Counted from the stretch's first letter, positions 7,692 through 58,131 are shown. The stretch: 64,000 nucleotides of DNA from Bdellovibrionales bacterium (GCA_040275305.1 JBEOJY010000033.1:17955-81954), one strand, 5' to 3'. Program-made: numbers and translations. The notes: generated from the letters alone by a model not told the origin.

Positions 7692-7696
7692 TTGCG

Positions 7697-42943: not shown

Positions 42944-43026
42944 CTTTCCGCATTGTTTGTCTACGTAACCTCAAAGTTAAGCTTGGGAGTTACCATTATT
43001 TTTGTAATTTATTATGTGATTTATAT

Positions 43027-43100
43027 CCACCAGCCAAGCCATTGAAATAGCTGGTGGGTGCGACAGGGATTGAACCTGTGACCCCTACCATGTCAAGGTA
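43027..43100. repeat. attL: direct-repeat copy of the tRNA-Val 3' 49 nt plus about 25 bp of downstream sequence
   Basis: Positions 43052-43100 are identical to 58057-58105 (49/49). The flanking segments 43027-43051 and 58032-58056 match at about 21/25. Confidence 0.75.
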
Positions 43101-43277
43101 ATAACTCGTAATTTTCTTTCGCTTCCTTTTGCTTTCCTAACCTTACTAATATGTTATATATCAATGTGATTTCTTATTTCCGGTAAGGTAGATGTCTTGC
43201 CGTAAATCACCGTAATTTCCCTTTATCTGCTTCCTATGTGCTTCCTGTAGGGGCGCTACCTTCAGAAAGGAATCATA

Positions 43278-44525
43278 ATGGTAAGGCTCACCAAGACGCA
43301 TGTCGAGGGATTGAAACCGGGCGAACCGGACTATTTTGTTTGGGATGAGACTTTGCCAGGCTTTGGCGTTCGCGTGTGGCCTAGCGGCAAGAAGACCTAC
43401 ATCGCGCAATATCGGGCGGTAGGGCGAACGAGGCGGATCAAGATAGGCAATCACGGCGTTTTGACGGTCGAGGAAGCCCGCAAACAGGCAAAAGGCATAC
43501 TGGGCGACGTCGCGCGAGGCGAAGACCCGCAAGAGGATCGCCTGACTCGCCGCAAGGCGATGACAGTTTCGGAGCTTTGCGAAGCCTACCTCTATGCTGC
43601 GGAGCGCGGTCTTATCATGGGCAAGGGAGGCCGCGCGAAACGTGAATCGACTTTGGCGATTGACAAGGGGAGGATTGAACGGCACATCAAGCCCCTGCTG
43701 GGCACCAAGCTTGTGCGCGAACTCACACCTTCGGATATAGGACGTTTTATTCGAGACGTTGCGTCTGGCAAGACGGCGGGGGTAGTTAAAACTGACCTGG
43801 TGCGCGGGCAGGCTATCGTTAAAGGTGGAGCTGGGACGGCTTCACGTTGCGCGGCGTTTCTGGGAGGCATGTTGAGTTTTGCCGTCGCGGAAGGCGTGAT
43901 CGCGCATAATCCGGCGCGAGGCGTGAAGCGTCCGGCCTATGGTAAGCGAACAAGGCGCTTAAACGCTGAAGAATACTGTCGCCTTGGCGAAGCCCTGCGC
44001 GTGCTGGAACGCGAAGGGGAAAGCTTGCAAGCAATTAAAGCGGCGTGGCTTCTCGCCCTGACAGGGTGTCGCCTGAACGAAATCGTCGAGTTGAAATGGG
44101 CGGAGGTAGATGACGTCGGGCGTTGCCTTCGGCTTGAGGATTCAAAAGAAGGCGCGTCTGTGCGGCCTTTGGGGGCGCATGCCATGGAAATCCTGCGCAG
44201 CGTCGGGCGCAAAGACGACGCTTTGTTTGTGCTCGAAGCCGTGCGCGGAAAAGGCTCGTTCGGGGGCATGCCTCGCGCGTGGCGGCGGTTTGCGAAGCGC
44301 GCCGGGTTTGAGGATGTAACGCCCCACACGTTGCGCCACAGCTTCGCGAGCGTTTCGGGCGATCTTGGCTTTGCGGACAGCACCATCGCCGCATTGCTGG
44401 GACATTCAACCGGAAGTATGACTTCGCGTTATGTGCACAAGCTTGATGCCGTGTTAATCGCCGCCGCTGATAAGGTTGCTGAGGCTGTTTGGGGGATGAT
44501 GGAGGATGGGAAGAATAATGGTTAA
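43278..44525 (+). CDS. int: Tyrosine-type site-specific integrase (P4-like, DUF4102 arm-binding N-terminus)
   Basis: Has LKPGEPDYFVWDETLPGFGVRVWPSGKKTYIAQYR (DUF4102) and a C-terminal HTLRHSFAS...LLGHSTGSMTSRYVH catalytic domain. Confidence 0.85.
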   Translation: MVRLTKTHVEGLKPGEPDYFVWDETLPGFGVRVWPSGKKTYIAQYRAVGRTRRIKIGNHGVLTVEEARKQAKGILGDVARGEDPQEDRLTRRKAMTVSELCEAYLYAAERGLIMGKGGRAKRESTLAIDKGRIERHIKPLLGTKLVRELTPSDIGRFIRDVASGKTAGVVKTDLVRGQAIVKGGAGTASRCAAFLGGMLSFAVAEGVIAHNPARGVKRPAYGKRTRRLNAEEYCRLGEALRVLEREGESLQAIKAAWLLALTGCRLNEIVELKWAEVDDVGRCLRLEDSKEGASVRPLGAHAMEILRSVGRKDDALFVLEAVRGKGSFGGMPRAWRRFAKRAGFEDVTPHTLRHSFASVSGDLGFADSTIAALLGHSTGSMTSRYVHKLDAVLIAAADKVAEAVWGMMEDGKNNG

Positions 44526-44702
44526 TGCTTTTACGCAACATTTTGACAAATTACCATTATTTTTCAATGCCTCACGATGGAAATCAACAATTGAAATTTA
44601 GGACAAAATGTCCTACATTCAGCATACCTAGTTCCCGCACGCCGAATCGGCCCCGGATGGGGTTCTTGGCAGCAATCGCTAGCCTAGGCTGCGGGAATGC
44701 CT

Positions 44703-45311
44703 CTATCTAAATCTCCATAAGTTTGCGATCTTCGGTGCTATCATGCCGTGCCAGCGTGAGGCGTCTTTTTTACCGGAGTAGGTGCGAGCTATTGCACCGG
44801 TTACCATATCGGCAAGCTGTATCAGGTGGTCATTACGAGAGGAAAGAAAAGTAATTTTCTTAATCTGGCCGTCTGGTATCATCCGCCTAATATATTGTGC
44901 CAGTTGCCTTTTGAACTCCCTGTCTCCGCTTTCGTCAATTTTAATGTGCGCCTTGTCTAGCATATGAGTGTGCTGTGAAATAAGTTGCCGGACGAAATAG
45001 TTGTAAAAACTGTCATTGCTTGTCCTTAAATGCTGGCTGTAGATTTCAGACTTGCGGACAGCAAGCGCGTATATTGAATAGTCAAACGGCGCAACGGCGG
45101 TGAAAAAGGCGTCCCTGATTTCGGCGCGGCTGTTGCTAAATTTGAATTCAGGGTAGATTTTCCTTTCCGCTTGAAGCTTCTTAATCGCCGCACTGCACTT
45201 TTCGGCTTCATCAAATGCCTTGAACACAATCATGCAGACGACAAAGAACTGCGAAGACCCTTTTTGGATCTTGAAACCAGAATCGCCGCTTTCGTCTATG
45301 AGTATAAGCAT
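44703..45311 (-). CDS. DUF3800 family protein
   Basis: Has the MLILIDESGDSGF N-terminus and the ...QLADMVTGAI motif characteristic of DUF3800. Confidence 0.55.
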   Translation of the reverse strand: MLILIDESGDSGFKIQKGSSQFFVVCMIVFKAFDEAEKCSAAIKKLQAERKIYPEFKFSNSRAEIRDAFFTAVAPFDYSIYALAVRKSEIYSQHLRTSNDSFYNYFVRQLISQHTHMLDKAHIKIDESGDREFKRQLAQYIRRMIPDGQIKKITFLSSRNDHLIQLADMVTGAIARTYSGKKDASRWHGMIAPKIANLWRFR

Positions 45312-45322
45312 GGCCCTTCTTC

Positions 45323-45625
45323 ATGGTAAGGATGATTTTGCGGAACTTCTCTATTAATATGCGTGTGTATATCAAATACAAAGCGTTCACCACACATAGT
45401 TCCGTTTTTGTAATAATGCACTCTTTGGTGGGAGATCGCAGCGCGTATGCTTTGTGTGGAGCGACGATGGAAACAGCCTTGCGTTTAGGAAGGTTCTTCG
45501 GCATGTCGCCGGAATTCTGGATGAACGCGCAGGCGCATTATGACCTGTTGCTGGCGGAAGCGAAACTGAGCCGCTCCATTGCCCGTGAGGTAACACCTTA
45601 TGAGGGGGATTGCGTCCGGGGGTAA
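45323..45625 (+). pseudogene. HigA-like antitoxin remnant (C-terminal half of an XRE-type HTH)
   Basis: METALRLGRFFGMSPEFWMNAQAHYDLLLAE matches the HigA C-terminal consensus (ALRLaRyFGtSpEFWlNLQ). No N-terminal helix region and no higB partner are present. Confidence 0.35.
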
Positions 45626-45844
45626 AAGCCGATGATGGCAGCCATGAGCAAGAAAGCGTTTGAAAGCATTGCCGCGAGACTGCGCGAAGCCGTTGCACAC
45701 GCGCAAGAGGATGATCGCGCGGAGGCGAGGTTTTTTAGTGCATGAATATTGATGAGCATTGCTGGACAGGCTATGCTAATCTGTGATCGAAACCGTAGAT
45801 AATACGCTATCGTCTGAGTTTGTATGTTGGAAAAGGTCGCAAAA

Positions 45845-46303
45845 ATGAAACAACTTGTTCTTTGTTTGATTGTCACTTTATGTCTGTGCGGATGCGTTAC
45901 AACCAAGGATCGGATTAATCAGCTTGATAGTCAAATTCGTCAGCTGGAGGCGGAGCAACGTGCTAAGTTGCACAAGGAAATAGAATTGTATCGCAATGAA
46001 AAGAATTCAACATGTACATCAAAAAATCTTACGTACGCTGGTCTAAATATACACGCTTTTGAGCTTTCTAATGATAGAATAGATTCTACTAGTGATTATG
46101 ATTCAATCATAAAGAATGCCAATATGGCCCTTGAAGCGATCTTTGAACTTGCGGATTTAGCAAAGGAACGCAGGTGTTATAAAGATGCAGATAAACTATA
46201 CCGCCATGTCATTGAAAGATATGTTGGAGTTTACTATTCTGGCTTTCGCGACAGAGCAAGAATAGGCATTGATGACATAAGGGGATTACAAAAAATAAAA
46301 TAA
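45845..46303 (+). CDS. Hypothetical lipoprotein with a coiled-coil segment
   Basis: Has the lipobox LCLCGC and a heptad-like QLDSQIRQLEAEQRAKLHKEIELYRNEK. Confidence 0.45.
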   Translation: MKQLVLCLIVTLCLCGCVTTKDRINQLDSQIRQLEAEQRAKLHKEIELYRNEKNSTCTSKNLTYAGLNIHAFELSNDRIDSTSDYDSIIKNANMALEAIFELADLAKERRCYKDADKLYRHVIERYVGVYYSGFRDRARIGIDDIRGLQKIK

Positions 46304-46309
46304 AAAGCG

Positions 46310-47170
46310 ATGTGCAGCATGCCTATCAGTATAGATGAAGCAGTAACGGAAATTGTTGAAGCTTTACGTAAGTTACCTCCTCTGTTGGCTACGCATGATC
46401 CAAATTTGCGTAGTTCAAAGACAGGGTGCGATATAAAGATTACCGAAATGTTTGGTAGTTGGTGGCACAAACAGCATAAGGGCATGCCGCAAATTCCTGA
46501 TCCTGGTGAACAGGATTATGCGCCTTTCCACGATGCTGCTTGGGAGTTGGCACGTAGGGGAATTTTACGGGCAGGAAAAGCATTTCCTGGGCTTTATAGT
46601 TTCATAGGTGGTGAGGATATTGCTGGCAATGGTTACTCGCTGACTGAAATGGGTAGAGAGTGGGTCGCAAAATATGACCAGTTTGGGCATGTTCCTGTTG
46701 ATCCCGGTCGTTTTGCGGCGCTTATTGCACCTTATGCACAAAAATTTGGCGAAGCATTTATCCAGCGCGTCTCGGAAGCAGCCGGGTGCTATCGCACATG
46801 CAATTATCTGGCAACGTGCGCCATGGCCGGAGCCGCTTGCGAATCGATCCTTCTTGCGCTTGCGATCAAAAAACAAGGCGATGAAGAGGCGGTTTTGAAG
46901 GCATATCTTGGGCGTGATGGCCGCCAAAAACTCATTAAAAGCCTATCCGGAAATTTGAATGGACACATGCGGCAGGGTATTGAAACGGCAACACAGATAC
47001 TTTCGTATTGGCGTGACAACGCTTCGCATGGGCACGCTACGACTGTTAGCGAGTTTGCTGCGCACGACGCCCTCTCGCGATTGTTGCGATTTGCACAATT
47101 CGCTGATGGTAAATGGGAAGTTCTTACCGCGAGTGAGGCTGTGCAAGCGCCGAATAGCCAAGCTTTGTAA
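46310..47170 (+). CDS. Hypothetical protein (286 aa)
   Basis: Uninterrupted ORF with no recognised domain. Confidence 0.45.
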   Translation: MCSMPISIDEAVTEIVEALRKLPPLLATHDPNLRSSKTGCDIKITEMFGSWWHKQHKGMPQIPDPGEQDYAPFHDAAWELARRGILRAGKAFPGLYSFIGGEDIAGNGYSLTEMGREWVAKYDQFGHVPVDPGRFAALIAPYAQKFGEAFIQRVSEAAGCYRTCNYLATCAMAGAACESILLALAIKKQGDEEAVLKAYLGRDGRQKLIKSLSGNLNGHMRQGIETATQILSYWRDNASHGHATTVSEFAAHDALSRLLRFAQFADGKWEVLTASEAVQAPNSQAL

Positions 47171-47519
47171 GTCTGTATCCGAGTTGGCCATCATAACGAT
47201 CCGAACAAGAACCTTCCTCAATGAGCCCCAAGTCAACAAGCTTTGCAATCGTCTTCTTTGACGAACTTACGGCGTTTTTTGCTGGCGGCTCGAAAAGGGA
47301 TGTCGAATTCGACATTCTCTGGAGAACTTTCCTCTCACGTTCGTTCAAGCGTGGAAGGACGGGCCAGATGGACGATTCCGCAGCAGTCTGGTGAACCATG
47401 AAAAAAAATCCTTGAGCGTGAGGCATTGACACGGCCCTGCGAATATGGTCTAGTAACCGTGTTGCTATCTCACGATATTTTTTGGGGATCTCCATGCGCT
47501 TCGATGTTTTTCCCACCAC
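47124..47519 (-). CDS. Hypothetical small protein, possibly a winged-helix regulator
   Basis: TIAKLVDLGLIEEGS...YRLTKLG resembles a wHTH recognition helix and wing. It overlaps neighbouring ORFs at both ends. Confidence 0.3.
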   Translation of the reverse strand: MVGKTSKRMEIPKKYREIATRLLDHIRRAVSMPHAQGFFFMVHQTAAESSIWPVLPRLNERERKVLQRMSNSTSLFEPPAKNAVSSSKKTIAKLVDLGLIEEGSCSDRYDGQLGYRLTKLGYSALAQPHSR

Positions 47520-48060
47520 ATTTTCTCCTGCAGAGGTTGCTCAGTTTACCGATGTTTCAACTGATCTACAACGCGATTGGCGGCGGCGAGGAATTATAGA
47601 TAATAATGATGGATTTGGTGTGGTTTCACTTAGAGAAGCAGTTAGCATTTTCCTTACAAAAATGCTTTCAACAAACGGGTTTGGCCCAATGCAAGCTGCA
47701 ATTTTCACCCGCAGCATTGTTGAGCAGGTTCTTGCAAGGACACTGAATAGGCTTGAAGTGTGGGATGGGGAGTGGGACAATGTGCCAATAAAATCTACTG
47801 ATTTAAGATTAACCGCATTGTTATCTCAATATATTAGATGTAGTTCACTCAATATTAAAGACTACTCTATTTTCTTGTATGATAGAACAATAAAAATTTC
47901 AAATAATATCTCGCAAGAGCTTGTGTCTATTCAGAATCATGCAAATGGTTTGTCTGCGCATCCGATAGTTATACTAGATCACGTTGGCATAGCTGACGAG
48001 TTGTTAAGACGACTTGGGAGTAGATATTTAGCAAGGTTTGTTTTTGAAAATTCTTCATAA
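47482..48060 (+). CDS. Hypothetical protein with an N-terminal MerR-like HTH
   Basis: FSPAEVAQFTDVSTDLQRDWRRRGII is a MerR-type HTH pattern. The C-terminal 130 aa lie in a low-GC segment (47760-48060). Confidence 0.4.
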   Translation: MGISMRFDVFPTTFSPAEVAQFTDVSTDLQRDWRRRGIIDNNDGFGVVSLREAVSIFLTKMLSTNGFGPMQAAIFTRSIVEQVLARTLNRLEVWDGEWDNVPIKSTDLRLTALLSQYIRCSSLNIKDYSIFLYDRTIKISNNISQELVSIQNHANGLSAHPIVILDHVGIADELLRRLGSRYLARFVFENSS

Positions 48061-48119
48061 GAAAAATACAAGCAAATTAGCGAACGCGACTAAAACTTCA
48101 GATACTTGGAGCCAATCGA

Positions 48120-48398
48120 ATGCCAGAATCTTTTCAACCCGCTTCGGCGGGAACGTTTAGCGCTTGCCTTCCGGCACCCTCCCACAAACCCCGCCTACGC
48201 CGTGCGGAAGTGCCCGGATATCTACTTAGCTATCACGGCATCCAAATTGCCGTAACAACGCTTGCAAAACTCGCGTCCATCGGTGGCGGGCCGCCGTTTT
48301 GCAAATTTGGCCGTCGTGTCCTTTATGAGCAGGACGCTTTAGATGCTTGGGTGCATCAAAAGCTTTCACTGCCCAGATTTAACACAAGCAAAACGTAA
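48120..48398 (+). CDS. alpA: AlpA/excisionase-like HTH_17 regulator
   Basis: [54 protein letters not shown] fits the AlpA-family pattern. The position between int and the primase is typical for a satellite regulator. Confidence 0.55.
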
Positions 48399-48420
48399 CA
48401 CTAAAAGAGGAGCGTTTACA

Positions 48421-48624
48421 ATGTCAGGAAACTATCTAGCCCCGACTGTTCTTGCCGCAATGAGCACACCACACCAGACGAGCGACATTATGCATGTGGT
48501 CGTATTTCATGATAATTGGTGCGGCGTTTACAAAAACAAGCCCTGCAACTGCAACCCTGACATCAAGATTCTGTCCGAGGCTGAATATCAGAAGCGCTTT
48601 GGAAAGCACCATCCTAAGCTTTAA
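48421..48624 (+). CDS. Small hypothetical Cys-rich protein (67 aa)
   Basis: An AAGAGGAG Shine-Dalgarno lies 9 nt before the ATG. The sequence contains HDNWCGVYKNKPCNCNP. Confidence 0.4.
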   Translation: MSGNYLAPTVLAAMSTPHQTSDIMHVVVFHDNWCGVYKNKPCNCNPDIKILSEAEYQKRFGKHHPKL

Positions 48625-48652: not shown

Positions 48653-51373
48653 ATGTCTCAGATCGCCCGCAAGGCGGCAACGCCTATGCTTTGCCTGACG
48701 AAAATTACTTCGGACCAAACGCTTGCGAAAGAATTCACCTTGGGGCCGAATGGAATTCTGTCGAAAAAGTCATGCGGGCAGCTAGTTGAGGGGGCAGCCG
48801 ATAGGCTTGAAATCGCAAATTTAATTGAGTTTGCGGCTATTCTTAAAGAGCTAACATCCGAGCAAGCTCTGACGTTTGGAGTTACAAAATATCTGCGCGC
48901 GCGAGTAAGGCCTAAAAGTTGCCTTAGCTCTGCGAATAGCAATGAGGCTATCGTTGCAAGGACGCGCGAGCATTTCAGCTTTATGCCGCAGGCTGGCGTC
49001 ATGATGTTCGATTACGATCAGCAGCCGAAAGTGGATGTACTCGATTCGGATGAACTGCGTCGGCGCATTCTGCGTGCCGTTCCAGAACTAACATCCGCGC
49101 CGATGCTTTGGCGTCCTTCGGCGTCAAGCTATATCGAAACGGAGGATGGACGAACAATTCTAGGGTTGGGTGGGCAACGACTGTATGTATCCGTCGCAGA
49201 CGCCTCGAAAATCCCCTTTGCAGGCAGTGCTATAGTCACGAGGTTATGGGCTGCTGGGTTTGGGTACGTCAAAATAAGCGGCGCGGGGAAAACGTTGCTG
49301 CGAACGATTGTTGATGATTCCGTATGGCAACCTGAAAGGCTGGACTTCGCGGGAGTGCCTAAGTTGGGGCAGGGCTTGCGGCGCAGCAACTTTGCGGAAA
49401 AATTTTGGAACAAATCCTCAGAACCGTTCGACTTATCTACAATCCAGCTTTCTGATGAAACGGAAAGCGAAGCTGAGAAGGCAAAAAATGCCGCAAAATC
49501 AGCCGCAGCGCCGGAATGCGCGCGCGTCCGCGGGGAGTGGATCGAAAAACAAGCGCAGCAAATTATGAATAAAGCTTCTATTTCTTACGAAGAGGCGCGG
49601 AAACAAGCCGAGCAAGCTGCGGAACAAAATACTCTAGGCCCTGACTTCATCCTACATACTCAGGACGGGAACAAGGTTTGCGTCCGTGAGTTGCTTGACA
49701 ATCCAGACCAATGGCATGAGACCCGCTTCGCCGATCCGTTTGAACCCAGCTACACTAATGATTCCCGCATCGCAGTTGCCTATCTGAAATGCTCCAAGCC
49801 CTGCATTTTCAGCCATGCGCACGGCGGCATCACCTATCATCTTTCTCGGGGGAAGCGTAGAGTTCAAATCGCAGAGGGACAACGCGCGCACGCCGTCGAT
49901 GAAGTTCTGCAAAGACTGCGAGAAAATGTAGAATTATACGACTACGGCTCAAGCGTTGCGCGTGTTGCTGGCGGGAAAATGGAAATCGTTACGCCTCCAT
50001 GGCTGGAAGACCATCTTTCACGGCGATTTGAATTTTTCAGCACGGCCAGAAGAAAGAATGGCGAGATTTATGAAAAATCCATCAATCCGCCGCAAAAAAT
50101 TGTCGAAGCGATTCTCGCGAAAGATGGGGAGAGGCAATTCCCCCGCCTGACTGCCGTGATTACCGCGCCGACGATGTGGGTGGACGGTGCAGTGCTTGAT
50201 CGCGAAGGGTATGACGCGCAAACAGGCCAGTTGCTTGTGAGAACAGGCGAGGATTTTTTCGCCGAAATCCCGCACACACCTTCGGTCGATCAAGCTATCG
50301 CGGCGCTTCGCAAACTTTGGGAGCCAATTAGCAAATTTCCGTTTGTCTGGGACGTTGATCGCGCCGTTGCGCTTGCGGCCTTGCTATCCACCTGCGTGCG
50401 GCCTGCGCTTCCGACTTGTCCGGGGTTTGCATTTGATGCGCCAGCGGCTGGGACTGGCAAAACTCTTTTGGCAAAGGTTGTCGGCGCGCTGGGAACAGGG
50501 AGAGAGCCGGATATTTTGCCTCCGGCGAGCGATCGCGATGATAGTGAAGCGCGGAAGCGGTTATTCGCGGCTCTTCGTGAAGGTCGTTCCGTCATTCTTT
50601 GGGACAACGTGAGTGGCAAGCTTGGCTTCCCAGCGTTGGACGCTTTTTTGACTGCGAAGGACTTTGCCGACCGGATACTTGGCGTCTCGCGTGTTGAAGC
50701 GCTTCCCAATCGTGCGCTGTTTCTGACTACCGGGAACAATTTGCGGATCGTTGGCGACACTTGCCGTCGCATCCTTGTGTCGCGGCTGGACGCGCGGGTT
50801 GAGCAACCCTACGCCCGAAAATTTGACTTTTGCCCTTTGGGCTATGCGCTGGAAAATCGGCAGGAACTTGTCGCGGCGGCGCTGACTTTCATTCGCGCCT
50901 GGTTCGCTTCTGGCGCGCCACATAGCGCACAGGGAAGCACAGCGTCTTTTGAAGACTGGGATCGCCTTGTCCGCCAGCCTATCGTTTGGATTGCGCAGCA
51001 TGTGCGGGACTGGCTACCGCTTGCCGATCCGTTAGAGGCTGTCAATCGTGCCTATCAAGGCGATGAAGAAATGGCGAAGTTGGAGGCGCTTGGAGCGGCC
51101 TGGTATGATGTTTTCAAGGAAGAATCTGCGACGCTAACCGAGGCCGAGCAGAAAACACGTTACTCCTGCGGTGATAAAAGCAAGCTGGAATCAAACTTGC
51201 GCGCGGCAATGCTTGCGATTGCGGGAGCGAATGGCTACGACGACCGGATCAATTCACGTATTCTTGGACATTTTTTGTGCGCCAATCGTGAGAGGCGTAC
51301 AGAACTCTTCCATTTCCTGCAAGACGGGAGAACCCACGGGCGGACGCGCTGGCGGGTGGTGGCTGACATTTAA
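48653..51373 (+). CDS. Large replication protein (primase/helicase-like P-loop NTPase) of the island
   Basis: A 906-aa protein with an AAGGAG Shine-Dalgarno. The Walker A motif FDAPAAGTGKTLLAKVV lies in the C-terminal third. Its size and its position after alpA are typical of P4-alpha or PICI Pri-Rep-type proteins. Confidence 0.55.
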   Translation: MSQIARKAATPMLCLTKITSDQTLAKEFTLGPNGILSKKSCGQLVEGAADRLEIANLIEFAAILKELTSEQALTFGVTKYLRARVRPKSCLSSANSNEAIVARTREHFSFMPQAGVMMFDYDQQPKVDVLDSDELRRRILRAVPELTSAPMLWRPSASSYIETEDGRTILGLGGQRLYVSVADASKIPFAGSAIVTRLWAAGFGYVKISGAGKTLLRTIVDDSVWQPERLDFAGVPKLGQGLRRSNFAEKFWNKSSEPFDLSTIQLSDETESEAEKAKNAAKSAAAPECARVRGEWIEKQAQQIMNKASISYEEARKQAEQAAEQNTLGPDFILHTQDGNKVCVRELLDNPDQWHETRFADPFEPSYTNDSRIAVAYLKCSKPCIFSHAHGGITYHLSRGKRRVQIAEGQRAHAVDEVLQRLRENVELYDYGSSVARVAGGKMEIVTPPWLEDHLSRRFEFFSTARRKNGEIYEKSINPPQKIVEAILAKDGERQFPRLTAVITAPTMWVDGAVLDREGYDAQTGQLLVRTGEDFFAEIPHTPSVDQAIAALRKLWEPISKFPFVWDVDRAVALAALLSTCVRPALPTCPGFAFDAPAAGTGKTLLAKVVGALGTGREPDILPPASDRDDSEARKRLFAALREGRSVILWDNVSGKLGFPALDAFLTAKDFADRILGVSRVEALPNRALFLTTGNNLRIVGDTCRRILVSRLDARVEQPYARKFDFCPLGYALENRQELVAAALTFIRAWFASGAPHSAQGSTASFEDWDRLVRQPIVWIAQHVRDWLPLADPLEAVNRAYQGDEEMAKLEALGAAWYDVFKEESATLTEAEQKTRYSCGDKSKLESNLRAAMLAIAGANGYDDRINSRILGHFLCANRERRTELFHFLQDGRTHGRTRWRVVADI

Positions 51374-51378
51374 CTCCT

Positions 51379-51607
51379 TTCGGGGTGAAAGGGTGATTTG
51401 ATTCCGGCCCTACAGCTCCGAGGCGCTACAGCGTGAAGCGCGGTGTGAGTTCCTATATCAGGAAGAAGAGGTATTCTCTCTTTATCTCTTTGTAAAATCT
51501 ATCTTTCTTCTCTAATGCAAAATGATTATGCATAGTATTAATCGTCCGCTTGGTGTTAGTCAGGTGAACTAAGCCGTAGGGCCGGAATCAAATCACCCTT
51601 TCACCCC
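51379..51607. repeat. 33-bp perfect inverted repeat flanking an AT-rich, CT-tract-rich spacer, a candidate ori/pac of the island
   Basis: CGGGGTGAAAGGGTGATTTGATTCCGGCCCTAC (51379-51411) and its exact reverse complement (51575-51607). The spacer contains TCTCTTTATCTCTTTG and TCTTTCTTCTCT. Confidence 0.55.
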
Positions 51608-51739
51608 GATCCAAATTAAATTGGTTTTCCACATTTATCATTCTTACTTTAGATTTCTTATTGTTACCTGATTTAGTCAAGTTTGTAGTTTTTTACACTT
51701 TTTTCGGGGTGATTGCGGGGTGATCACTTTGCTTCACGT

Positions 51740-52324
51740 TCATTCTCTCGCTTTAGCGTACATCATCCCCCAATCGCTTACTGCTCGGTCTATTAGCAGT
51801 CTGCTTTTTTCGTGCATATATTCTACAAACCGATCCCCCATAGTGAACGGTGGGGATATATCCCCAACTACTATCTTCGGGCCTATATCGTACTCGCCAT
51901 GTGACGTGACTACTTTCGTATCTTTATGATCTGTAATTTCGACTACTAAATCTGTTTTGCATACTGCATGGGGAGCTAACCAGCTATCAGCTCCGCAATA
52001 TGAGCTAAATTGGGATAATTTTATTCGTTTAATTATTGCGTTGTTCGGAATAGCAGCAGCAACGCGAGCAATTAGGTAATCGCCAACAGGTATTGTGTGG
52101 TAATCCTGTCCTGTTCTGGTTGGATATTTTATTGCCGCAAGTCGAAAACTTTCTGAATCTGTTTTTGACAAGAATGGATTATCTTTTACTTCTGCAATAA
52201 AGTTTGTGACTCCTACGGGCGGATATGTAACTGGCGCGTATCCGCCGCATGAAGTTAATGATAGTAATAGGAGATGGGGTAAAGTGGAGAAGCGAAACTT
52301 TGATTGTGTTGAGCCTTTTATCAT
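51740..52324 (-). CDS. Hypothetical lipoprotein in an AT-rich segment of the island
   Basis: Has the lipobox LLLSLTSCGG. Confidence 0.4.
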   Translation of the reverse strand: MIKGSTQSKFRFSTLPHLLLLSLTSCGGYAPVTYPPVGVTNFIAEVKDNPFLSKTDSESFRLAAIKYPTRTGQDYHTIPVGDYLIARVAAAIPNNAIIKRIKLSQFSSYCGADSWLAPHAVCKTDLVVEITDHKDTKVVTSHGEYDIGPKIVVGDISPPFTMGDRFVEYMHEKSRLLIDRAVSDWGMMYAKARE

Positions 52325-52553
52325 ATCTTCTCCTTGTCGCACTTAGTGGTAAACATTTCAACTACCTGTCACTTGAGTCAATCCCTGACATTACAGCCAA
52401 TTCATGAAAAAATATACAGTGCAACCACAAAAACAATTTCATAATTAATGATTAGCGATGATTAGTAAGAAATATACATTAACATACAATTTTATTTTTG
52501 CTTTAGCAATCACTATACTATGCTGAAATAAACTTTCTTTTTGGCCATACTGC

Positions 52554-53765
52554 ATGTTCAAGGCTTTCAGCCGCATTCTTCAGCGAGAGTCCAAGTCGGC
52601 GTTGTCTTCTTTTTTTGCGCCGATTTTCGGCGTTCCTTCATCGGCTTCCGGCGTTGCGGTGACGGCTGAAACGGCGCTGCGCAATTCGACGGTTTACGGG
52701 TGTGTGAAGGTTATATCCGAAGCCGTTGCGCAGCTTCCTTTGCGCCTTTACCGGAGGCTTCCCGACGGCGGGAAAGAACGCGCTACCGATCATCCGCTCG
52801 ACTCCCTACTAAACGAGCAGCCGAATGACTGGACATCCGCTTTTGATTTCAGATTGTTCATGCAGTCGTCGCTATGCCTGCATGGGAATGCCTTCGCATT
52901 TGTGAACAGGCTGGGCGGCAAAGTCGTGGAGCTGATTTCTATTCCGCCTTCCTGCGTCACGGTCGAAGTTGATCCGGTTACGATGGAGCCTGCTTATCGC
53001 GTCGCTTCGGCCAACGGAGAAAATCGTATTTATGGGCGACAGGAAATCCTTCACCTCAAAACGTTAGGCACGTTGCCGCAAATCGGCAAATCGCCTGTCG
53101 CGCTTATGAGCGAGGCTATCGGCGTTGCGATGGCTATGGAAGAACACGCCGCGCGCATTTTTTCTTCTGGGGCTAGGCCCGGCGGCGTTCTCAAATACGG
53201 AAAAACACTAACGGACAATGCTCTTAAGCAGTTGCGAGTAAGCCTTGAAACAGCGCATGTCGGTGGCGGCAACGCCGGGCGGACGATGATTCTCGAAGAC
53301 GGAATGACATTCGAGCCGCTTCAGTTTTCAAGTGTGGATATTCAATTTCTCGAAATGCGCAGGCATCAGGTCGCTGAAATTGCGCGAGCCTTCCGCGTTC
53401 CCCTCCATATGTTGCAAGACCTCGAACGAACCACGCATAGCAACGCCGAAAGCCTTGGACAGCAATTCTTATCCCTAACCCTGTTGCCTTGGCTGAAATG
53501 TTGGGAAGGCGGCATTCGCTCTTCGTTGCTGTCTCCCGAAGAGAGAGGTGTTTATTACGCGGAGTTCCTTACAGACGACCTAGCCCGCGCCGATCTTGCT
53601 GCACGTTTCGACGCCTACACCAAAGCGGTAACGAACGGGATTCTTTCCCCGAACGAGGTGCGCACTGCAGAAAATCGTACTCCTTATCTTGGTGGGGATC
53701 AATTCAGGCTTCCGCTGAATACGACACCCGCTGGAAAGGGGGGCGTTGCGCATGAATCGCTATAA
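52554..53765 (+). CDS. Phage portal protein, HK97 family
   Basis: The 403-aa protein has the HK97-type portal length and composition, with a conserved central core. Confidence 0.8.
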   Translation: MFKAFSRILQRESKSALSSFFAPIFGVPSSASGVAVTAETALRNSTVYGCVKVISEAVAQLPLRLYRRLPDGGKERATDHPLDSLLNEQPNDWTSAFDFRLFMQSSLCLHGNAFAFVNRLGGKVVELISIPPSCVTVEVDPVTMEPAYRVASANGENRIYGRQEILHLKTLGTLPQIGKSPVALMSEAIGVAMAMEEHAARIFSSGARPGGVLKYGKTLTDNALKQLRVSLETAHVGGGNAGRTMILEDGMTFEPLQFSSVDIQFLEMRRHQVAEIARAFRVPLHMLQDLERTTHSNAESLGQQFLSLTLLPWLKCWEGGIRSSLLSPEERGVYYAEFLTDDLARADLAARFDAYTKAVTNGILSPNEVRTAENRTPYLGGDQFRLPLNTTPAGKGGVAHESL

Positions 53766-55419
53766 CGTTAAAGCGCAACTCTCCGCGCATGAATCTGGCG
53801 TTTTTGCTGGATATGCCAGCGTGTTTGATGGTGAACCTGACAGTTACGGGGATGTCATTGCTCCGGGAGCTTTCGCGAAAAGTCTTGCTTCACACAGGTG
53901 CAAGGGAACCTTGCCAGTCTTACTGTGGCAACATGACCCAGGAGAGCCGATAGGTGTTTGGCTTGATCTCCGCGAAGATGTAACGGGGCTTTCCGTTACG
54001 GGCCGCCTCGTTCTTGAAACGCAGCGTGGGCGCGAAGCCTATGCGCTTTTGAAAGCCGGGGCCTTGAACGGCCTTTCGATTGGCTACCGCACACGTGCTT
54101 CTGAACGTCGAGCGGGCGGCGCACGGGTTTTGCAGGAACTTGAACTGATCGAAATATCACTTGTAACACTCCCGGCAGCATCAAAAGCGAGGGTTACAAG
54201 TATTAAGGCGGCTTCAGCCGTTTCACCCGCCGCCGATGAAGCGGCCAACAAGAGGAGGCAACCCATGGCCATAGCATTTAAGGCTCCAACAGTTCAAAAT
54301 GAAGAGGGGAAAGACCTTGAACCGCGTATTCTTTCTCTCGAAGAATCAGTCGTGAACATCGACACGCGCCTGAAGGCCGTTGAAGAAGGTGTTGGCAAAG
54401 TTGCCAAGTCAGCCGACCGCATTGAACAGAAGCTCAATCGACCGGGTTTCACGCCGGAGATACACCACTCTACCGAGAAATGCGAAAACAAAGCCTTCGC
54501 AGATTTTTTGCGGCGCGGAAGGGAAGCTTTACAGGTTGATGAAGTCAAGGCTTTGGTTGTTTCCCCGGATACGGCGGGAGGATATCTTGCTCCAAGCGAA
54601 TTTGTCGCGCAAGTTATCAAGGGGATTATTTCAGTTTCTCCCGTCAGACGAGCCGCGAAAGTAGGTACAACATCTTTAGGTGCTGTGACTTTGCCGAGAC
54701 GAACCGCTACGCCGACCGCGTCATGGGTTGGGGAGCTCACTGCGCGAAGTGGCACTGGCTCGACTTATGGACAGGCCGAGATTCAAGTTCATGAAATGGC
54801 TTGTTATGTGGATGTCTCCCTGCGGTTGCTTGAAGACGCAGCTGTCAATGTGGAAGCAGAAGTCGCTTCCGATCTTGCAGAAGAATTTGGCCGTCTCGAA
54901 GGAGCCTCATTCGTTTCCGGCAGTGGTATGAACCAGCCGTTTGGCATTTGTTCTGATGCCAATGTGAATTATACGCCGACAGGTAATGCGTCCGGGCTTC
55001 CTTCGTCCAATCCCGCTGATCCACTTATCTCTCTGATATACCTTCTGCCAGAGTTTTACCGAAACTCTGGCGTATGGATGATGAACGGTACAACGCTTGC
55101 AGCTTTGCGCAAGATAAAGACTGGTGATGGTCATTATCTTTGGCAACCGTCTTTTCAGGTAGGCCAACCAGAGACCCTGCTTGGGCGTCCGGTGATTGAA
55201 GCACCTGATATGCCGAATTTCGGTGCTGGCACCACACCGATCATCTTCGGAGATTTTTCCCGTGCTTATCGTATTTTCGATCACAAAAGCGTTTCGCTTT
55301 TGCGCGATCCATACAGTCAGGCCGCAAGCGGACTTGTGCGTTTTCATGCGCGAAGACGCGTTGGCGCTGCCGTGGTTTTGCCTGAAGCGATACGCAAGCT
55401 TAAATGCGCAACATCATAG
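53746..55419 (+). CDS. Fusion of an HK97-family prohead protease and a major capsid protein
   Basis: The N-terminal 170 aa or so form an S78-type protease (GYASVFDGEPDSYGDVIAPGAF...GLSIGY). The C-terminal 330 aa or so form an HK97-fold capsid protein (SGSGMNQPFGI..., with a coiled linker). Confidence 0.8.
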   Translation: MRMNRYNVKAQLSAHESGVFAGYASVFDGEPDSYGDVIAPGAFAKSLASHRCKGTLPVLLWQHDPGEPIGVWLDLREDVTGLSVTGRLVLETQRGREAYALLKAGALNGLSIGYRTRASERRAGGARVLQELELIEISLVTLPAASKARVTSIKAASAVSPAADEAANKRRQPMAIAFKAPTVQNEEGKDLEPRILSLEESVVNIDTRLKAVEEGVGKVAKSADRIEQKLNRPGFTPEIHHSTEKCENKAFADFLRRGREALQVDEVKALVVSPDTAGGYLAPSEFVAQVIKGIISVSPVRRAAKVGTTSLGAVTLPRRTATPTASWVGELTARSGTGSTYGQAEIQVHEMACYVDVSLRLLEDAAVNVEAEVASDLAEEFGRLEGASFVSGSGMNQPFGICSDANVNYTPTGNASGLPSSNPADPLISLIYLLPEFYRNSGVWMMNGTTLAALRKIKTGDGHYLWQPSFQVGQPETLLGRPVIEAPDMPNFGAGTTPIIFGDFSRAYRIFDHKSVSLLRDPYSQAASGLVRFHARRRVGAAVVLPEAIRKLKCATS

Positions 55420-55754
55420 ATCGCATAATGCCATGGTCGATTCCTAGACATTGCCCTGCGGGACATCCTCCTTTCACTGGGATGCGCTGTCCTGCCTGCG
55501 CCACGGTCAGAGATAAAAATAGGCCTAATGCTAGGCAGCGTGGCTATACGAAGCAGTGGCAATGCGAAGCGAAGTCCTTCCTTGGCACACATTCTTTTTG
55601 CCGCGCTTGCGGTGCGCGGGCCGCTGTCGTGGATCATGTTATCCCTCACAAGGGTAACATGGACTTGTTTTGGGATCGCACGAATTGGCAACCGCTTTGT
55701 GCGACTTGCCACAATCGTAAAACAGTTTCTCAAGATGGTGGTTTCGGAAGGTGA
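55404..55754 (+). CDS. HNH endonuclease
   Basis: The Cys/His pattern CPACA...CRACG...DHVIPH...CATCHNRK matches HNH. Confidence 0.7.
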   Translation: MRNIIDRIMPWSIPRHCPAGHPPFTGMRCPACATVRDKNRPNARQRGYTKQWQCEAKSFLGTHSFCRACGARAAVVDHVIPHKGNMDLFWDRTNWQPLCATCHNRKTVSQDGGFGR

Positions 55755-55868
55755 ATGAGTCGTTCAGAAGGAGGGAGGGGGGGGGGGGGATTGAAAATTT
55801 CTTCTGACAAAGATCGGTACCGTATGGGAGGTCTTGCGCACGTTTTTTGGGAAATTGGAGTTTTTTAA

Positions 55869-56279
55869 ATGAAGGGGCGTAAACCTAATCTTGTAGCTTT
55901 AGTTAACCCTGCGTCTTCTGAGACATTCAACGCTGCCCCTTTATGGCTTACGCGGCAAGCGAGAGAGGAATGGGAGCGCGTCGCGCCCTGCTTACGCAAT
56001 CGCAACCTTTTCACTGCGGATACGGTGGCAATGCTCGAACATTATTGCCTCGCGGTCGGACAAATCCGAGAAACTGAGGCGCTTATGCGCAGGGACGGGC
56101 GCTTGATAGTGACGACGAAAGGTACAATCCCTCATCCGGCCTTTCGTGTGCAATGCGCTGCCATGCGCGAAGCCCGCTTGTTGGCCGCCGAGCTTGGTCT
56201 TTCACCTCATCGCAGCGCCATCCATGGGCCTAAGGGATCGAACAAAGATGACGCATGGGACACCGATCTTCTCGCCTGA
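55869..56279 (+). CDS. Terminase small subunit, P27 family
   Basis: A 136-aa protein. EHYCLAVGQIRETEALMRRDGRLI is typical of P27 TerS. Confidence 0.7.
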   Translation: MKGRKPNLVALVNPASSETFNAAPLWLTRQAREEWERVAPCLRNRNLFTADTVAMLEHYCLAVGQIRETEALMRRDGRLIVTTKGTIPHPAFRVQCAAMREARLLAAELGLSPHRSAIHGPKGSNKDDAWDTDLLA

Positions 56280-57858
56280 CCCGACGTTGTACGACGATCC
56301 GACAGGGCGTGCCGACAGAATCTGCCGTTTCGTCCATCGTTTACGCCTTTGGGAAGGTGATTTCGCTGGAAAGCCATTTACTCTCAACCGTTTTCAGGAA
56401 GCCATAATCCGCCGAATTTATGGCCCGACGAATGCCGACGGGACACGAGCTGTGCGGATCGCTTGCATATGGATTCCGCGAGGCAATGCGAAAACAACAC
56501 TTGCCGCAGCGCTTGCCCTTGCGCATTTCTTGGGGCCAGAAGCGGAAGCAGGCGGGCAAGTCGTTTTGGCCGCCGCTGATCGCGAAAATGCGGGTATTGC
56601 ATTCAATTCTGCTCATCAATTTGCGTTGCAAGACGAAGCGCTTGTCTCGCGCATTAGGGCGGCAGAAAGCCGAAAATCCCTTACGCATCCAAAAACCAAA
56701 AGTATCTTAAAAGCCATATCATCTGAAGCTTATTCTAAACATGGCCTTAACGTCTCTTTCTTTCTCGCCGACGAAATCCATGCTTGGCCAACAAGTGAAG
56801 GGCGCAAGCTTTTCAAGACTGTTACAGATTCCATGGTAAAGCGGGCGCATCCGCTTAGTGTAGTCATTTCGACCGCAGGAGAAGGGCAAGGCGGCCTTGC
56901 ATGGGACATGTGGAAATATTCACACCGTGTGGCGATGGGTGAAATAGAAGACCCGTCCTTCGCTCCCATTATCTTCGCAGCAGATTCGGGAGATTGGCGT
57001 AATGAAGAAGCTTGGTGCGTTGCCAATCCTGCTATTGCAGCGGGTTTTTGTTCCATCGACGAATTGAGGATTAAGGCCCGTCGGATCGAACATTTTCCTT
57101 CCGAGATAGCTGATTTCCGGCGCTATCACCTAAATCAGTGGCAGGAAGGCACGGCGCAGCCGTGGCTTGATCCTGCCTTGTACGACACCGCGCAAGCCAT
57201 GACTCCGCTTTGCGAATTGACAGGCCGTAAATGCTGGATTGGGATCGACCTTTCCAGCGTCGAAGACTTGACCGCCGTTGTCGCCGTCTTTCCCGATGGA
57301 GAGGGAGAAAATCGCTGTTACGACGTTTTGCCGATGTTTTTCTTGCCGGAAGCGAATATTGCCCGCAAGGGCGAAAAGGACAGGGCCGATTATGTGCGCT
57401 GGGCGCAAGAAGGCTTCCTAAAACTCACGCCCGGCAACGTGGTGGATCATGCTGCGGTAGTGGAATATGTCGCGATGCTTGGCGAGCGGTACGGTGTACA
57501 GGAAATCGCAATCGACCGATGGAATTCTACGGCGGTGAATACAGGCCTGCAAGAACGCGGGTTTGCAATAAATCAGTTTGGGCAAGGTTTCGCGAGCATG
57601 GCCGCTCCCGTAAGGGAGTTAAAACGGGCGATCCTTTCAGGACGCTTTCGGCATGGCGGAAATCCTTTGCTGCGCCTTTGCTTCAACAACGTAGTCGCTG
57701 AAAAAGACGCGGCCGAAAACGAGAAATTCACCAAGGAAAAAGCTAGGGGGCGCATAGACGGGGCCGTTGCTTCGACAATGGCTATCGGGCGTATCCTTTC
57801 CGGCGAAGCAAGCGTTTCTCCATATGAAAGCCGCGAAGGCGGTTTTCTTTTTCTTTAG
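56248..57858 (+). CDS. Terminase large subunit
   Basis: Has an ATPase Walker A-like IPRGNAKTTLAAALA and a C-terminal nuclease domain. It overlaps the terS end. Confidence 0.8.
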   Translation: MTHGTPIFSPDPTLYDDPTGRADRICRFVHRLRLWEGDFAGKPFTLNRFQEAIIRRIYGPTNADGTRAVRIACIWIPRGNAKTTLAAALALAHFLGPEAEAGGQVVLAAADRENAGIAFNSAHQFALQDEALVSRIRAAESRKSLTHPKTKSILKAISSEAYSKHGLNVSFFLADEIHAWPTSEGRKLFKTVTDSMVKRAHPLSVVISTAGEGQGGLAWDMWKYSHRVAMGEIEDPSFAPIIFAADSGDWRNEEAWCVANPAIAAGFCSIDELRIKARRIEHFPSEIADFRRYHLNQWQEGTAQPWLDPALYDTAQAMTPLCELTGRKCWIGIDLSSVEDLTAVVAVFPDGEGENRCYDVLPMFFLPEANIARKGEKDRADYVRWAQEGFLKLTPGNVVDHAAVVEYVAMLGERYGVQEIAIDRWNSTAVNTGLQERGFAINQFGQGFASMAAPVRELKRAILSGRFRHGGNPLLRLCFNNVVAEKDAAENEKFTKEKARGRIDGAVASTMAIGRILSGEASVSPYESREGGFLFL

Positions 57859-58056
57859 GAGTTTAGCGCTGTGCGCCTTCCGGCAAAAGAAGCGCGGGAG
57901 GACAATCTTTGCTTGAATAAAGTGACGCAGAAACGGCTTATACAAATTCGCCAGCAAAGCTTGATGGAGCCGTCGCGCTCAATCGATTCTGCTTCCTATG
58001 TGCTTCCTGTTTGATTGTCTTGCCTTCACCGCCACCAGCTAAGTCTTTGAAATAGC

Positions 58057-58131
58057 TGGTGGGTGCGACAGGGATTGAACCTGTGACCCCTACCATGTCA
58101 AGGTAGTGCTCTCCCGCTGAGCTACGCACCC
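58057..58131 (-). tRNA. tRNA-Val (anticodon GAC). Its 3' end faces the island and is the integration target.
   Basis: The reverse complement is GGGTGCGTAGCTCAGCGGGAGAGCACTACCTTGACATGGTAGGGGTCACAGGTTCAATCCCTGTCGCACCCACCA. It folds as a cloverleaf with a 7-bp acceptor stem, an anticodon loop TTGACAT and a TTCAATC T-loop. Confidence 0.85.

Follow-up and report, generated by a model that had tools for sequence, protein, structure and literature searches.

The DNA examined here, a window of 64,000 nucleotides (nt) from a metagenome-assembled genome (MAG) labelled Bdellovibrionales, includes an island of about 15 kb that is integrated at a tRNA-Val gene and encodes capsid and packaging proteins; one public contig carries it. 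Our subject is the 3.6-kb segment of this island that extends from the stop codon of the integrase gene (44525) to the start of an alpA-like gene (48120), and in particular two genes at its integrase-proximal end: a gene for a DUF3800 protein and, converging on it from the opposite strand, a gene for a structured RNA of the DUF3800-IX family. Further along the segment lie the remnant of a higA gene, a gene for a probable secreted protein or lipoprotein, a gene for a 286-amino-acid protein with a winged helix-turn-helix (wHTH) and a predicted HEPN fold, and two divergent genes for putative regulators (Table 1). A scan for open reading frames (ORFs) recovered each of the frames that an earlier, sequence-only reading had listed between these two borders, at or near the positions it had assigned to them. 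That reading missed the DUF3800-IX RNA gene and the HEPN fold, and it is the RNA gene that defines, together with the DUF3800 gene, a mobile unit of about 0.8 kb.

Table 1. Features of the segment and of the island around it, in window coordinates.
Feature	Position	Strand	Remarks
DUF3800 protein, 202 aa	44703-45311	-	Pfam PF12686
DUF3800-IX structured RNA	44632-44701	+	Rfam RF02968; three-way junction of P1, P2 and P3
Sigma-70-like promoter of the non-coding RNA	44591-44619	+	TTGAAA-17-TACATT
wHTH and predicted HEPN protein, 286 aa	46310-47170	+	RDNASH (R235...H240)
higA remnant, C-terminal half of the helix-turn-helix (HTH) only	45461-45625	+	inside ORF 45323-45625
Probable secreted protein or lipoprotein with coiled-coil stretch	45845-46303	+	153 aa from M8, or 159 aa from 45824; 38% GC patch
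Small wHTH protein, 91 aa	47124-47399	-	length as called on the public contig; longest reading 131 aa from GTG at 47519
Divergent control region, 94 bp	47400-47493		imperfect inverted repeats 47417-47434 / 47457-47474
CvkR-like MerR-type regulator, 188 aa	47494-48060	+	39-41% GC patch
AlpA-like HTH_17 protein, 92 aa	48120-48398	+	weak HTH_17 match; right border of segment
Tyrosine integrase, 415 aa	43278-44525	+	Phage_integrase, Arm-DNA-bind_3 and phrog_1 matches
attL	43027-43100		74-nt direct repeat with displaced 3' part of tRNA-Val
Partner repeat of attL	58032-58105		overlaps 3' part of intact tRNA-Val(GAC)
Intact tRNA-Val(GAC)	58057-58131	-	
23-nt direct repeat	43226-43248 and 57988-58010		just inside both island ends; copies 100% identical

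The sequence-only reading had recognized the DUF3800 protein, and indeed Pfam PF12686 matches its residues 5-176 well above the gathering score (E=5.2e-13; 50.4 bits against a cutoff of 21). The subfamily to which it belongs has 348 members at E<=1e-5, and in an alignment of 36 of these sequences, the window protein included, residues D6, E7, D126, Q165 and D168 are invariant; they correspond to the N-terminal DE and C-terminal QxxD motifs described for the family in PMC7736814. Members of the family have been modelled as RNase H2-like or RNase H-fold nucleases (PMC7736814, PMC10910872, PMC12669027), and with the fold taken from these studies the window protein is predicted to be an RNase H-fold nuclease; a profile search of PDB sequences with the DUF3800 alignment found no solved relative. 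Among the PADLOC models, the candidate model PDC-M04A (PDLC04353) matches the protein with E=3.1e-14 and 50.9 bits, and the retron-VII model DUF3800_VII matches it weakly (E=2.6e-4). The other PDC-M04 models match none of 10 island proteins, and a PADLOC run detected no complete system in the segment, which agrees with the earlier opinion that nothing in it is a textbook defence system.

Only two matches in an Rfam scan of the window exceed the gathering score, one being a tRNA and the other the DUF3800-IX RNA, which covers the full model (1-67) with 43.9 bits against a gathering score of 36.8. The RNA gene is situated in the intergenic region between int and the DUF3800 gene, is convergent with the latter, and is separated by 1 nt from its stop codon. 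A minimum-free-energy fold of the single sequence reproduces the consensus junction. Transcription of the RNA is predicted, from the position of its promoter, to start at A44626. Between the -35 and -10 hexamers of this promoter there is a perfect palindrome, AGGACAAAATGTCCT, at 44601-44615, whose minus strand reads as a terminator-like hairpin for the DUF3800 mRNA (44615-44599(-)), located beyond the RNA gene; the palindrome could be an operator, a terminator, or both. If the mRNA does end at this hairpin, its 3' untranslated region (UTR) would be complementary to the RNA.

The association of the gene with the RNA is not a peculiarity of the window. The species-representative genome collection contains only two relatives of the DUF3800 subfamily, in a Rhodospirillales MAG (65% protein identity) and a Legionellales MAG (51%), and both of these closest relatives carry the RNA at the equivalent place and in the equivalent orientation. 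A first metagenome scan with single-protein patterns returned nothing, but an alignment-based scan succeeded and yielded 80 metagenomic and 16 IMG/VR loci. With a covariance model built from three copies, the RNA was found just 3' of a DUF3800-subfamily gene in 96 of 99 sources, window included. Its strand was opposite to that of the gene in all 90 non-redundant cases, and the gap between the stop codon and the 3' end of the RNA had a median of 6 nt across these loci (range -18 to 70). Of the 25 base pairs, 22 change on both sides, and 89% of the cells are paired, as against 34-49% in slid controls and with none of 500 shuffles reaching the observed values, with the caveat that the alignment used for covariation was fitted to the covariance model. 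G.U pairs outnumber A.C pairs by 216 to 39, an excess which shows that the RNA corresponds to the strand antisense to the DUF3800 gene. Several unpaired stretches are invariant, namely CGAA, the hairpin CCG.AUGG, and UAG. Moreover, 56 of 85 related loci have a sigma-70-like promoter upstream of the RNA at a constant spacing, the -10 hexamer beginning 17-22 nt before the motif; many of these promoters are near consensus, and an A, the likely start, is conserved at -6.

The unit formed by the gene and its RNA appears in the company of no particular protein. Clustering of about 1650 ORFs within 3 kb of the gene gave no conserved protein partner in some 95 loci; the commonest neighbours, tyrosine integrases (11 loci) and XRE-type HTH proteins (9 loci), are found at about 10% of loci, and the other cargo genes of the window do not co-occur with DUF3800 in about 97 loci. 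Pairs of loci at roughly 82-84% nucleotide identity share only some 720-830 nt, with about 2-3 kb of unrelated flank on each side. The shared block runs from the start of the ORF to about 105-140 nt past the last codon, that is, it comprises the gene, the RNA and the RNA promoter, and the region upstream of the ORF has no conserved positions. The gene-plus-RNA unit of about 0.8 kb is mobile as a module and recurs in unrelated flanks. Among the 16 IMG/VR copies, nine are no more than 2.5 kb away from the end of a contig. The copy in the Legionellales MAG (L004) is flanked by sRNA-Xcc1 (RF02221, 74.5 bits; 5480-5562(+)), an integron-associated RNA, and by a gene for a protein with Schlafen/AlbA_2 and HATPase_c_4 domains (7070-8557(+)); these flanks suggest a cassette or defence-type neighbourhood.

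A second nuclease-type candidate is the 286-aa protein, which the sequence-only reading had described as being of unknown fold. The protein matches no Pfam, PADLOC, PHROG or NCBIfam model, and none of its 236 homologues has a Pfam domain, but the fold proved determinable. An AlphaFold2 model based on the family alignment (pLDDT, the predicted local distance difference test score, of 86.6) has the all-alpha fold of HEPN proteins with a winged helix fused at the N-terminus, and R235 and H240, which form the Rx4H motif within YWRDxxxHG, are invariant in 56 aligned sequences. Sub-threshold Pfam matches of the relatives are to DUF4145 (18 of the 56 sequences, best E 0.0012), HEPN_MAE_28990, RiboL-PSP and Swt1; a search for the family in BFVD structures and a profile search of PDB sequences with the HEPN alignment both returned nothing. 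In all seven other contexts examined the gene is solo, with neighbours that include a serine recombinase, RecQ with a reverse transcriptase, a patatin, toxin-antitoxin (TA) genes of the RelE/ParE and PIN types, and a metal-resistance region with an integrase. Neither the lipoprotein-like gene nor the small wHTH gene, both considered as possible partners in the window, is conserved beside HEPN homologues. On the strength of the model and the motif, the protein is predicted to be a solo wHTH-HEPN RNase whose family is absent from the curated models.

Two other protein genes of the segment are probably of a different kind. The ORF of 188 aa (192 aa in the sequence-only reading) matches no Pfam, PHROG, NCBIfam or PADLOC model and stands alone in a 90%-clustered database. 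An exhaustive HMMER search found 107 remote relatives, most of which share its first 95 or so residues and the motif LQRDWRRRG, and MerR_1 is matched by 31 of 43 relatives. Its AlphaFold2 model is confident (pLDDT 94.2) and contains an N-terminal winged HTH of the MerR type, so structure prediction gave recognizable folds, HEPN and CvkR-like MerR, for both of the proteins that had been proposed for it. The MerR-like family occurs on 26 IMG/VR contigs, about half of which measure only 8-15 kb, and at most of these loci there is in addition a portal, capsid, TerL or integrase gene. Three sister satellites (L108, L112 and L116) have the same order as the window, with int, a variable stretch, the MerR-like gene, an alpA-like gene and, further on, the portal gene; the gene for the major capsid protein (MCP) follows in L108, and the other two loci end in the portal gene. 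The small wHTH gene is divergent from the MerR-like gene, as is its homologue in L117. At a length of 91 aa its ORF is clear of the MerR-like gene and overlaps the last 47 nt of the 286-aa gene. The inverted repeats in the control region between the two divergent genes suggest an operator.

In SatelliteFinder, the regulation module of phage-inducible chromosomal islands (PICIs) is defined by alpA, merR or stl, and accessory genes are placed between the integrase gene and that module (PMC10085698). The stretch from int to the regulator is a variable slot, as its counterparts in the three sisters consist of 2-4.5 kb of unrelated genes that have no family matches. On the best-supported reading, the accessory slot in the strict sense corresponds to 44526-47170 and holds the DUF3800 gene with its RNA, the higA fragment, the lipoprotein-like gene and the wHTH-HEPN gene. 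Fold, position and recurrence suggest that 47124-48060 would be the regulatory switch of the island and not cargo, with the 188-aa protein as its probable master regulator and the small wHTH gene as only a probable member. The sequence-only reading had treated everything between int and alpA as a cargo hotspot; a variable slot with two nuclease-type candidates is indeed there, but the MerR-like gene, whose MerR fold and low-GC setting had been correctly noted, belongs to the conserved core beside alpA. The opposite-strand wHTH ORF likewise exists, but it does not overlap the MerR-like gene at its called length, as had been supposed, and it is probably part of core regulation. A group of IMG/VR contigs of about 7.6-15 kb (L109-L111, L114, L122, L126-L128, L130 and L133), most of them with the order TerL, MerR-like, MCP, portal and int, are probably complete satellites or mini-phages from uncultured hosts that share the MerR-like regulator of the window island.

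The explanation of the segment that we favour, and which we think probable by a small measure, is that of an accessory slot that carries an RNA-controlled nuclease module and a HEPN gene, next to a separate regulatory switch. In this scheme a structured RNA of about 75 nt would be transcribed from its own promoter towards the 3' end of the DUF3800 gene, and would bind the cognate DUF3800 nuclease and control it, either as an inhibitor, in the manner of an antitoxin, or as an obligatory cofactor. An imbalance between RNA and protein, such as might follow phage infection or loss of the element, would then release the nuclease activity. The HEPN protein would be a second, independent effector, a single-protein RNase, and the gene for the CvkR-like MerR-type repressor together with the divergent small wHTH gene, just upstream of alpA and the primase gene, would constitute the satellite's own switch. 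That the RNA binds and controls the nuclease is suggested by the one-to-one linkage of the two, the RNA's own promoter, its conserved single-stranded bases, the lack of a protein partner, and the movement of gene and RNA as a unit. Control by RNA is also suggested by type VII retrons, which use the same domain as their effector and have a non-coding nucleic acid that takes part in the control. As to the biological role of the pair, a toxin-antitoxin-like or abortive-infection function is the likeliest single reading, though one put forward tentatively, as we infer each of its components: the binding of RNA to protein, toxicity, and an anti-phage or competition phenotype. The anti-phage role that the sequence-only reading had in view for such cargo is likewise putative. 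A bolder version, possible but in our view doubtful, is that the pair represents a new class of two-component protein-RNA immune or addiction system, in which a dedicated non-coding RNA, in place of a protein antitoxin or of the msDNA of a retron, would restrain an RNase H-fold effector that is freed by phage attack, and which would serve as interchangeable cargo of satellites.

A number of observations weigh against the scheme as a whole. By tblastn, the DUF3800 subfamily was found in none of 50,697 phage and none of 72,556 plasmid records, so that the evidence linking it to mobile elements comes from metagenomic and IMG/VR contigs. The accessory slots of the three sister satellites contain no defence-family matches, no relative in the HEPN family matches a PADLOC model, and the HEPN family was not found in IMG/VR. 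A hairpin followed by a U-run is present after the RNA in only 26 of 90 loci, at scattered positions, so that there is no conserved intrinsic terminator to mark its 3' end; the data fit an antisense effect on the mRNA as well as protein binding. Weinberg et al. (2017, PMC5737381), who reported eleven unrelated RNA motifs beside DUF3800 genes, stated that no functional hypothesis was obvious to them, and a full-text literature search found neither a later functional study of DUF3800 nor an experiment on any DUF3800-RNA pair. The regulatory role of the MerR-like and wHTH genes, finally, is deduced from position and fold.

Among the rival explanations, the one that survives best, unlikely as we consider it, is that the DUF3800-RNA pair is purely selfish, an addiction or mobility cassette without an anti-phage role: either a TA pair that stabilizes its carrier, or a minimal mobile unit in which the protein is a recombinase or homing nuclease and the RNA marks the end of the cassette. 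The recurrence of a 0.8-kb unit in unrelated flanks, with nothing conserved upstream of the ORF, is what would be expected of such an element, as is its location beside integrases and at prophage ends, next to sRNA-Xcc1 in the Legionellales MAG, and in the window against a higA gene that lacks its 5' half. However, no terminal inverted repeats or target duplications were seen, though these were not searched for systematically, and a protein of 200 aa would be small for a transposase. Moreover, DUF3800 proteins elsewhere are effectors or accessory proteins of retrons and CRISPR systems (PMC7736814, PMC12669027).

An RNA that controls the nuclease by binding to it has also to be set against one that acts only in cis or as an antisense RNA. 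Convergent transcription would then lower expression of the DUF3800 gene, as in the 3' overlaps of type I TA systems, and the structure of the RNA would serve stability only. The convergent geometry with its short median gap, the lack of a conserved terminator after the RNA, and the terminator-like hairpin of the window mRNA, which would give the latter a 3' UTR complementary to the RNA, all fit this view, but we regard it as improbable, since invariant single-stranded nucleotides and a three-way junction conserved across phyla exceed what an antisense RNA needs and there is no complementarity to the 5' UTR. Pairing of the RNA loop (GGAUGG) with the DUF3800 5' UTR was considered and rejected; a CAUCC is present in the window, but only 4 of 81 loci have one, against 3.6 expected. 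DUF3800 genes are accompanied by eleven unrelated RNA structures, which occur in either orientation (PMC5737381), and this argues for recognition by the protein instead.

More improbable still is the notion that the RNA is a guide or template and the DUF3800 protein a miniature RNA-guided RNase H-fold nuclease, comparable to TnpB/IscB-omegaRNA or Argonaute, with a variable part of the transcript specifying the target. RuvC and PIWI nucleases have the RNase H fold as their catalytic fold, and the RNA gene does abut the nuclease gene in a fixed geometry; the RNA may also run past its conserved core. Yet, unlike omegaRNAs, the RNA lies on the opposite strand, no variable guide-like segment is evident in the 71-nt core, the sequence downstream of it is only the antisense of the module's own gene, and 202 aa leave little room for the binding of both guide and target. 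Lastly, the suggestion that the motif is no RNA gene, being either a bidirectional terminator shared by convergent genes or an element in the 3' UTR of the DUF3800 mRNA that was assigned to the wrong strand, takes support from its GC-richness and its place between the convergent int and DUF3800 genes of the window, but is largely refuted by a ratio of G.U to A.C pairs that fits only the plus strand, by a plus-strand promoter at fixed distance in most loci, by three stems with conserved junction bases, and by the presence of the motif whatever the neighbouring gene.

If the proposed RNA-controlled nuclease module is compared with known systems, its closest counterpart is the DUF3800-IX RNA/DUF3800 pair already on record (RF02968, PMC5737381), of which the window pair is a member with no difference in kind. 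What is new for DUF3800-IX is the invariant convergent geometry, the RNA's own promoter, the lack of a protein partner, the modular mobility, and carriage next to int in a satellite that resembles the capsid-forming PICIs (cfPICIs). DUF3800 proteins are also known as the effectors of type VII retrons, which consist of a reverse transcriptase, msr/msd and DUF3800 (Mestre et al. 2020, PMC7736814), and as accessory RNase H-fold nucleases of some type V and VI CRISPR loci (PMC10910872, PMC12669027). The retrons resemble the present pair in coupling a DUF3800 effector domain to a structured non-coding nucleic acid, which suggests that the nucleic acid controls the nuclease. The pair is not itself a type VII retron, as none of the island ORFs scanned with Pfam between the att sites has an RVT domain, and the DUF3800 proteins of retrons lack the Q of the QxxD motif, which as Q165 is invariant here. 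Type III TA systems of the ToxIN kind likewise combine a nuclease with a dedicated structured RNA gene and are carried by mobile elements. The antitoxin RNA of ToxIN, however, is a tandem array upstream of the toxin gene and on the same strand, whereas the window RNA has a single copy, which lies downstream of the gene on the other strand, and 44400-48200 contains no tandem repeats; the protein has a predicted RNase H fold rather than that of ToxN.

Similar comparisons can be made for the HEPN and MerR-like proteins. From known HEPN toxins and abortive-infection proteins (LsoA/RnlA, Csm6, the HEPN domain of AbiA, HEPN-MNT and DUF4145), the 286-aa protein differs in reaching no Pfam HEPN threshold, in its fused winged helix, and in being encoded by a solo gene that has no conserved partner, whether MNT, Dmd-like or other. 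A HEPN-MNT system was rejected, as the HEPN gene has no nucleotidyltransferase gene beside it, either in the window or in the seven other contexts. CvkR, the MerR-type repressor of type V-K CRISPR-associated transposons (PMC9938897, PDB 7xn2), shares 13% identity with the 188-aa protein, which belongs to a phage satellite and not to a transposon. The HEPN protein is a new family-level member of a known superfamily, and the MerR-like protein places a CvkR-like regulator in a host element that is new for this type.

Since 2017, when eleven RNA structures were found to accompany one protein domain, the RNAs associated with DUF3800 have posed a puzzle (PMC5737381). The locus in the window and the 96 loci compared with it now define a minimal unit of about 0.8 kb, made up of one nuclease gene and one RNA with its own promoter, with no further partner. 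Both partners belong to catalogued families (RF02968 and PF12686), and what is added here is a sharply defined, minimal and testable unit. Since it is located in a satellite's accessory slot, a place in which one expects functions directed against phages or serving interference, a simple experiment of cloning, toxicity assay and phage challenge would be meaningful. If the reading as a protein-RNA immune or addiction system were true, the eleven DUF3800 RNA motifs might be seen as eleven solutions to the same problem of an RNA antitoxin or sensor. In addition, a fold and a probable activity can be assigned to the unannotated wHTH-HEPN family, and a CvkR-like MerR regulator emerges as a recurrent core gene in a family of small capsid-encoding satellites of uncultured bacteria.

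The rest of the accessory slot is occupied by smaller or degraded genes. The sequence-only reading had described a truncated HigA-like antitoxin with no toxin partner, which agrees with what was found: residues 47-94 of the higA ORF align to residues 54-101 of a 104-aa HigA/VapI protein (3trb), TIGR02607 matches residues 47-79 only, and no HigB-like toxin ORF lies beside the remnant in the segment. Just 3' of the remnant, a 37-aa ORF at 45632-45745(+) (MMAAMSKKAFESIAARLREAVAHAQEDDRAEARFFSA), which is also a called gene in the public contig, may represent a further fragment of antitoxin type. The coiled-coil lipoprotein proposed by the same reading does correspond to an ORF with a signal peptide and a lipobox-like LCGC in its 159-aa form, but its matches to lipoprotein and Cor families are weak (E of about 1e-3), and neither the phage collection nor any of the fetched loci yielded a relative of it. 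Low-GC patches occur around 45750-46500 (38%) and around 47500-48250 (39-41%). A distant blastn search of the whole segment against phages gave no match.

The island as a whole is a satellite of the type that had been proposed, with att repeats at a tRNA-Val gene, capsid and packaging genes, and no tail genes. Its two 74-nt att repeats are 96% identical, and the displaced tRNA fragment is visible as a sub-threshold tRNA match at 43055-43126(-). A sub-threshold Rfam match to HPnc0260 at 42972-43090(+) was discarded as an artefact, as the tRNA-like 3' end of that model matches the displaced tRNA-Val fragment. The 23-nt repeat inside the island ends is a candidate arm-type site of the integrase, which would be consistent with the Arm-DNA-bind_3 domain of the latter. 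The integrase gene is at the island end that adjoins the displaced tRNA fragment, and TerL abuts the intact tRNA-Val gene. In such elements int is more often found beside the intact tRNA.

On the far side of alpA lie genes for a 906-aa primase-like protein, a portal protein, a fusion of protease and MCP, an HNH endonuclease, TerS and TerL, and there are no tail or lysis genes among the family matches in Pfam and PHROG scans between the att sites. Nine of the 11 core components of SatelliteFinder are present (list from PMC10085698, tallied on family matches), and the island resembles cfPICIs (de Sousa et al. 2023, PMC10085698) in having int, a regulator, a primase-replicase, portal, protease, capsid, HNH, TerS and TerL genes within about 15 kb between att repeats, with no tail or holin genes. 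It differs from them in that no head-tail adaptor or connector genes were found, in the fusion of protease and capsid protein, in the position of int distal from the intact tRNA, and in its uncultured host. In 51373-58032 there is no unassigned ORF of at least 100 aa other than one lipoprotein-like ORF on the opposite strand; smaller ORFs were not profiled. We regard the island as a cfPICI-like satellite, with a capsid of its own and no tail genes. The prohead protease (Peptidase_S78) and MCP form a single ORF of 557 aa at 53746-55419(+), and mergers of this sort have been reported mainly for cfPICIs of Firmicutes (PMC10085698).

Two further ORFs of the island are worth recording. A Cys-rich ORF of 93 aa at 48343-48624(+) (CGVYKNKPCNCNPD), which has no family match, shares 56 nt with the 3' end of the alpA-like gene. 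The lipoprotein-like ORF on the opposite strand, at 51740-52342(-), encodes 200 aa with an LTSCGG lipobox and has no Pfam or PHROG match; it lies in a patch of 36-44% GC, with the primase gene on one side and the portal gene on the other, and the island may have a second accessory slot here.

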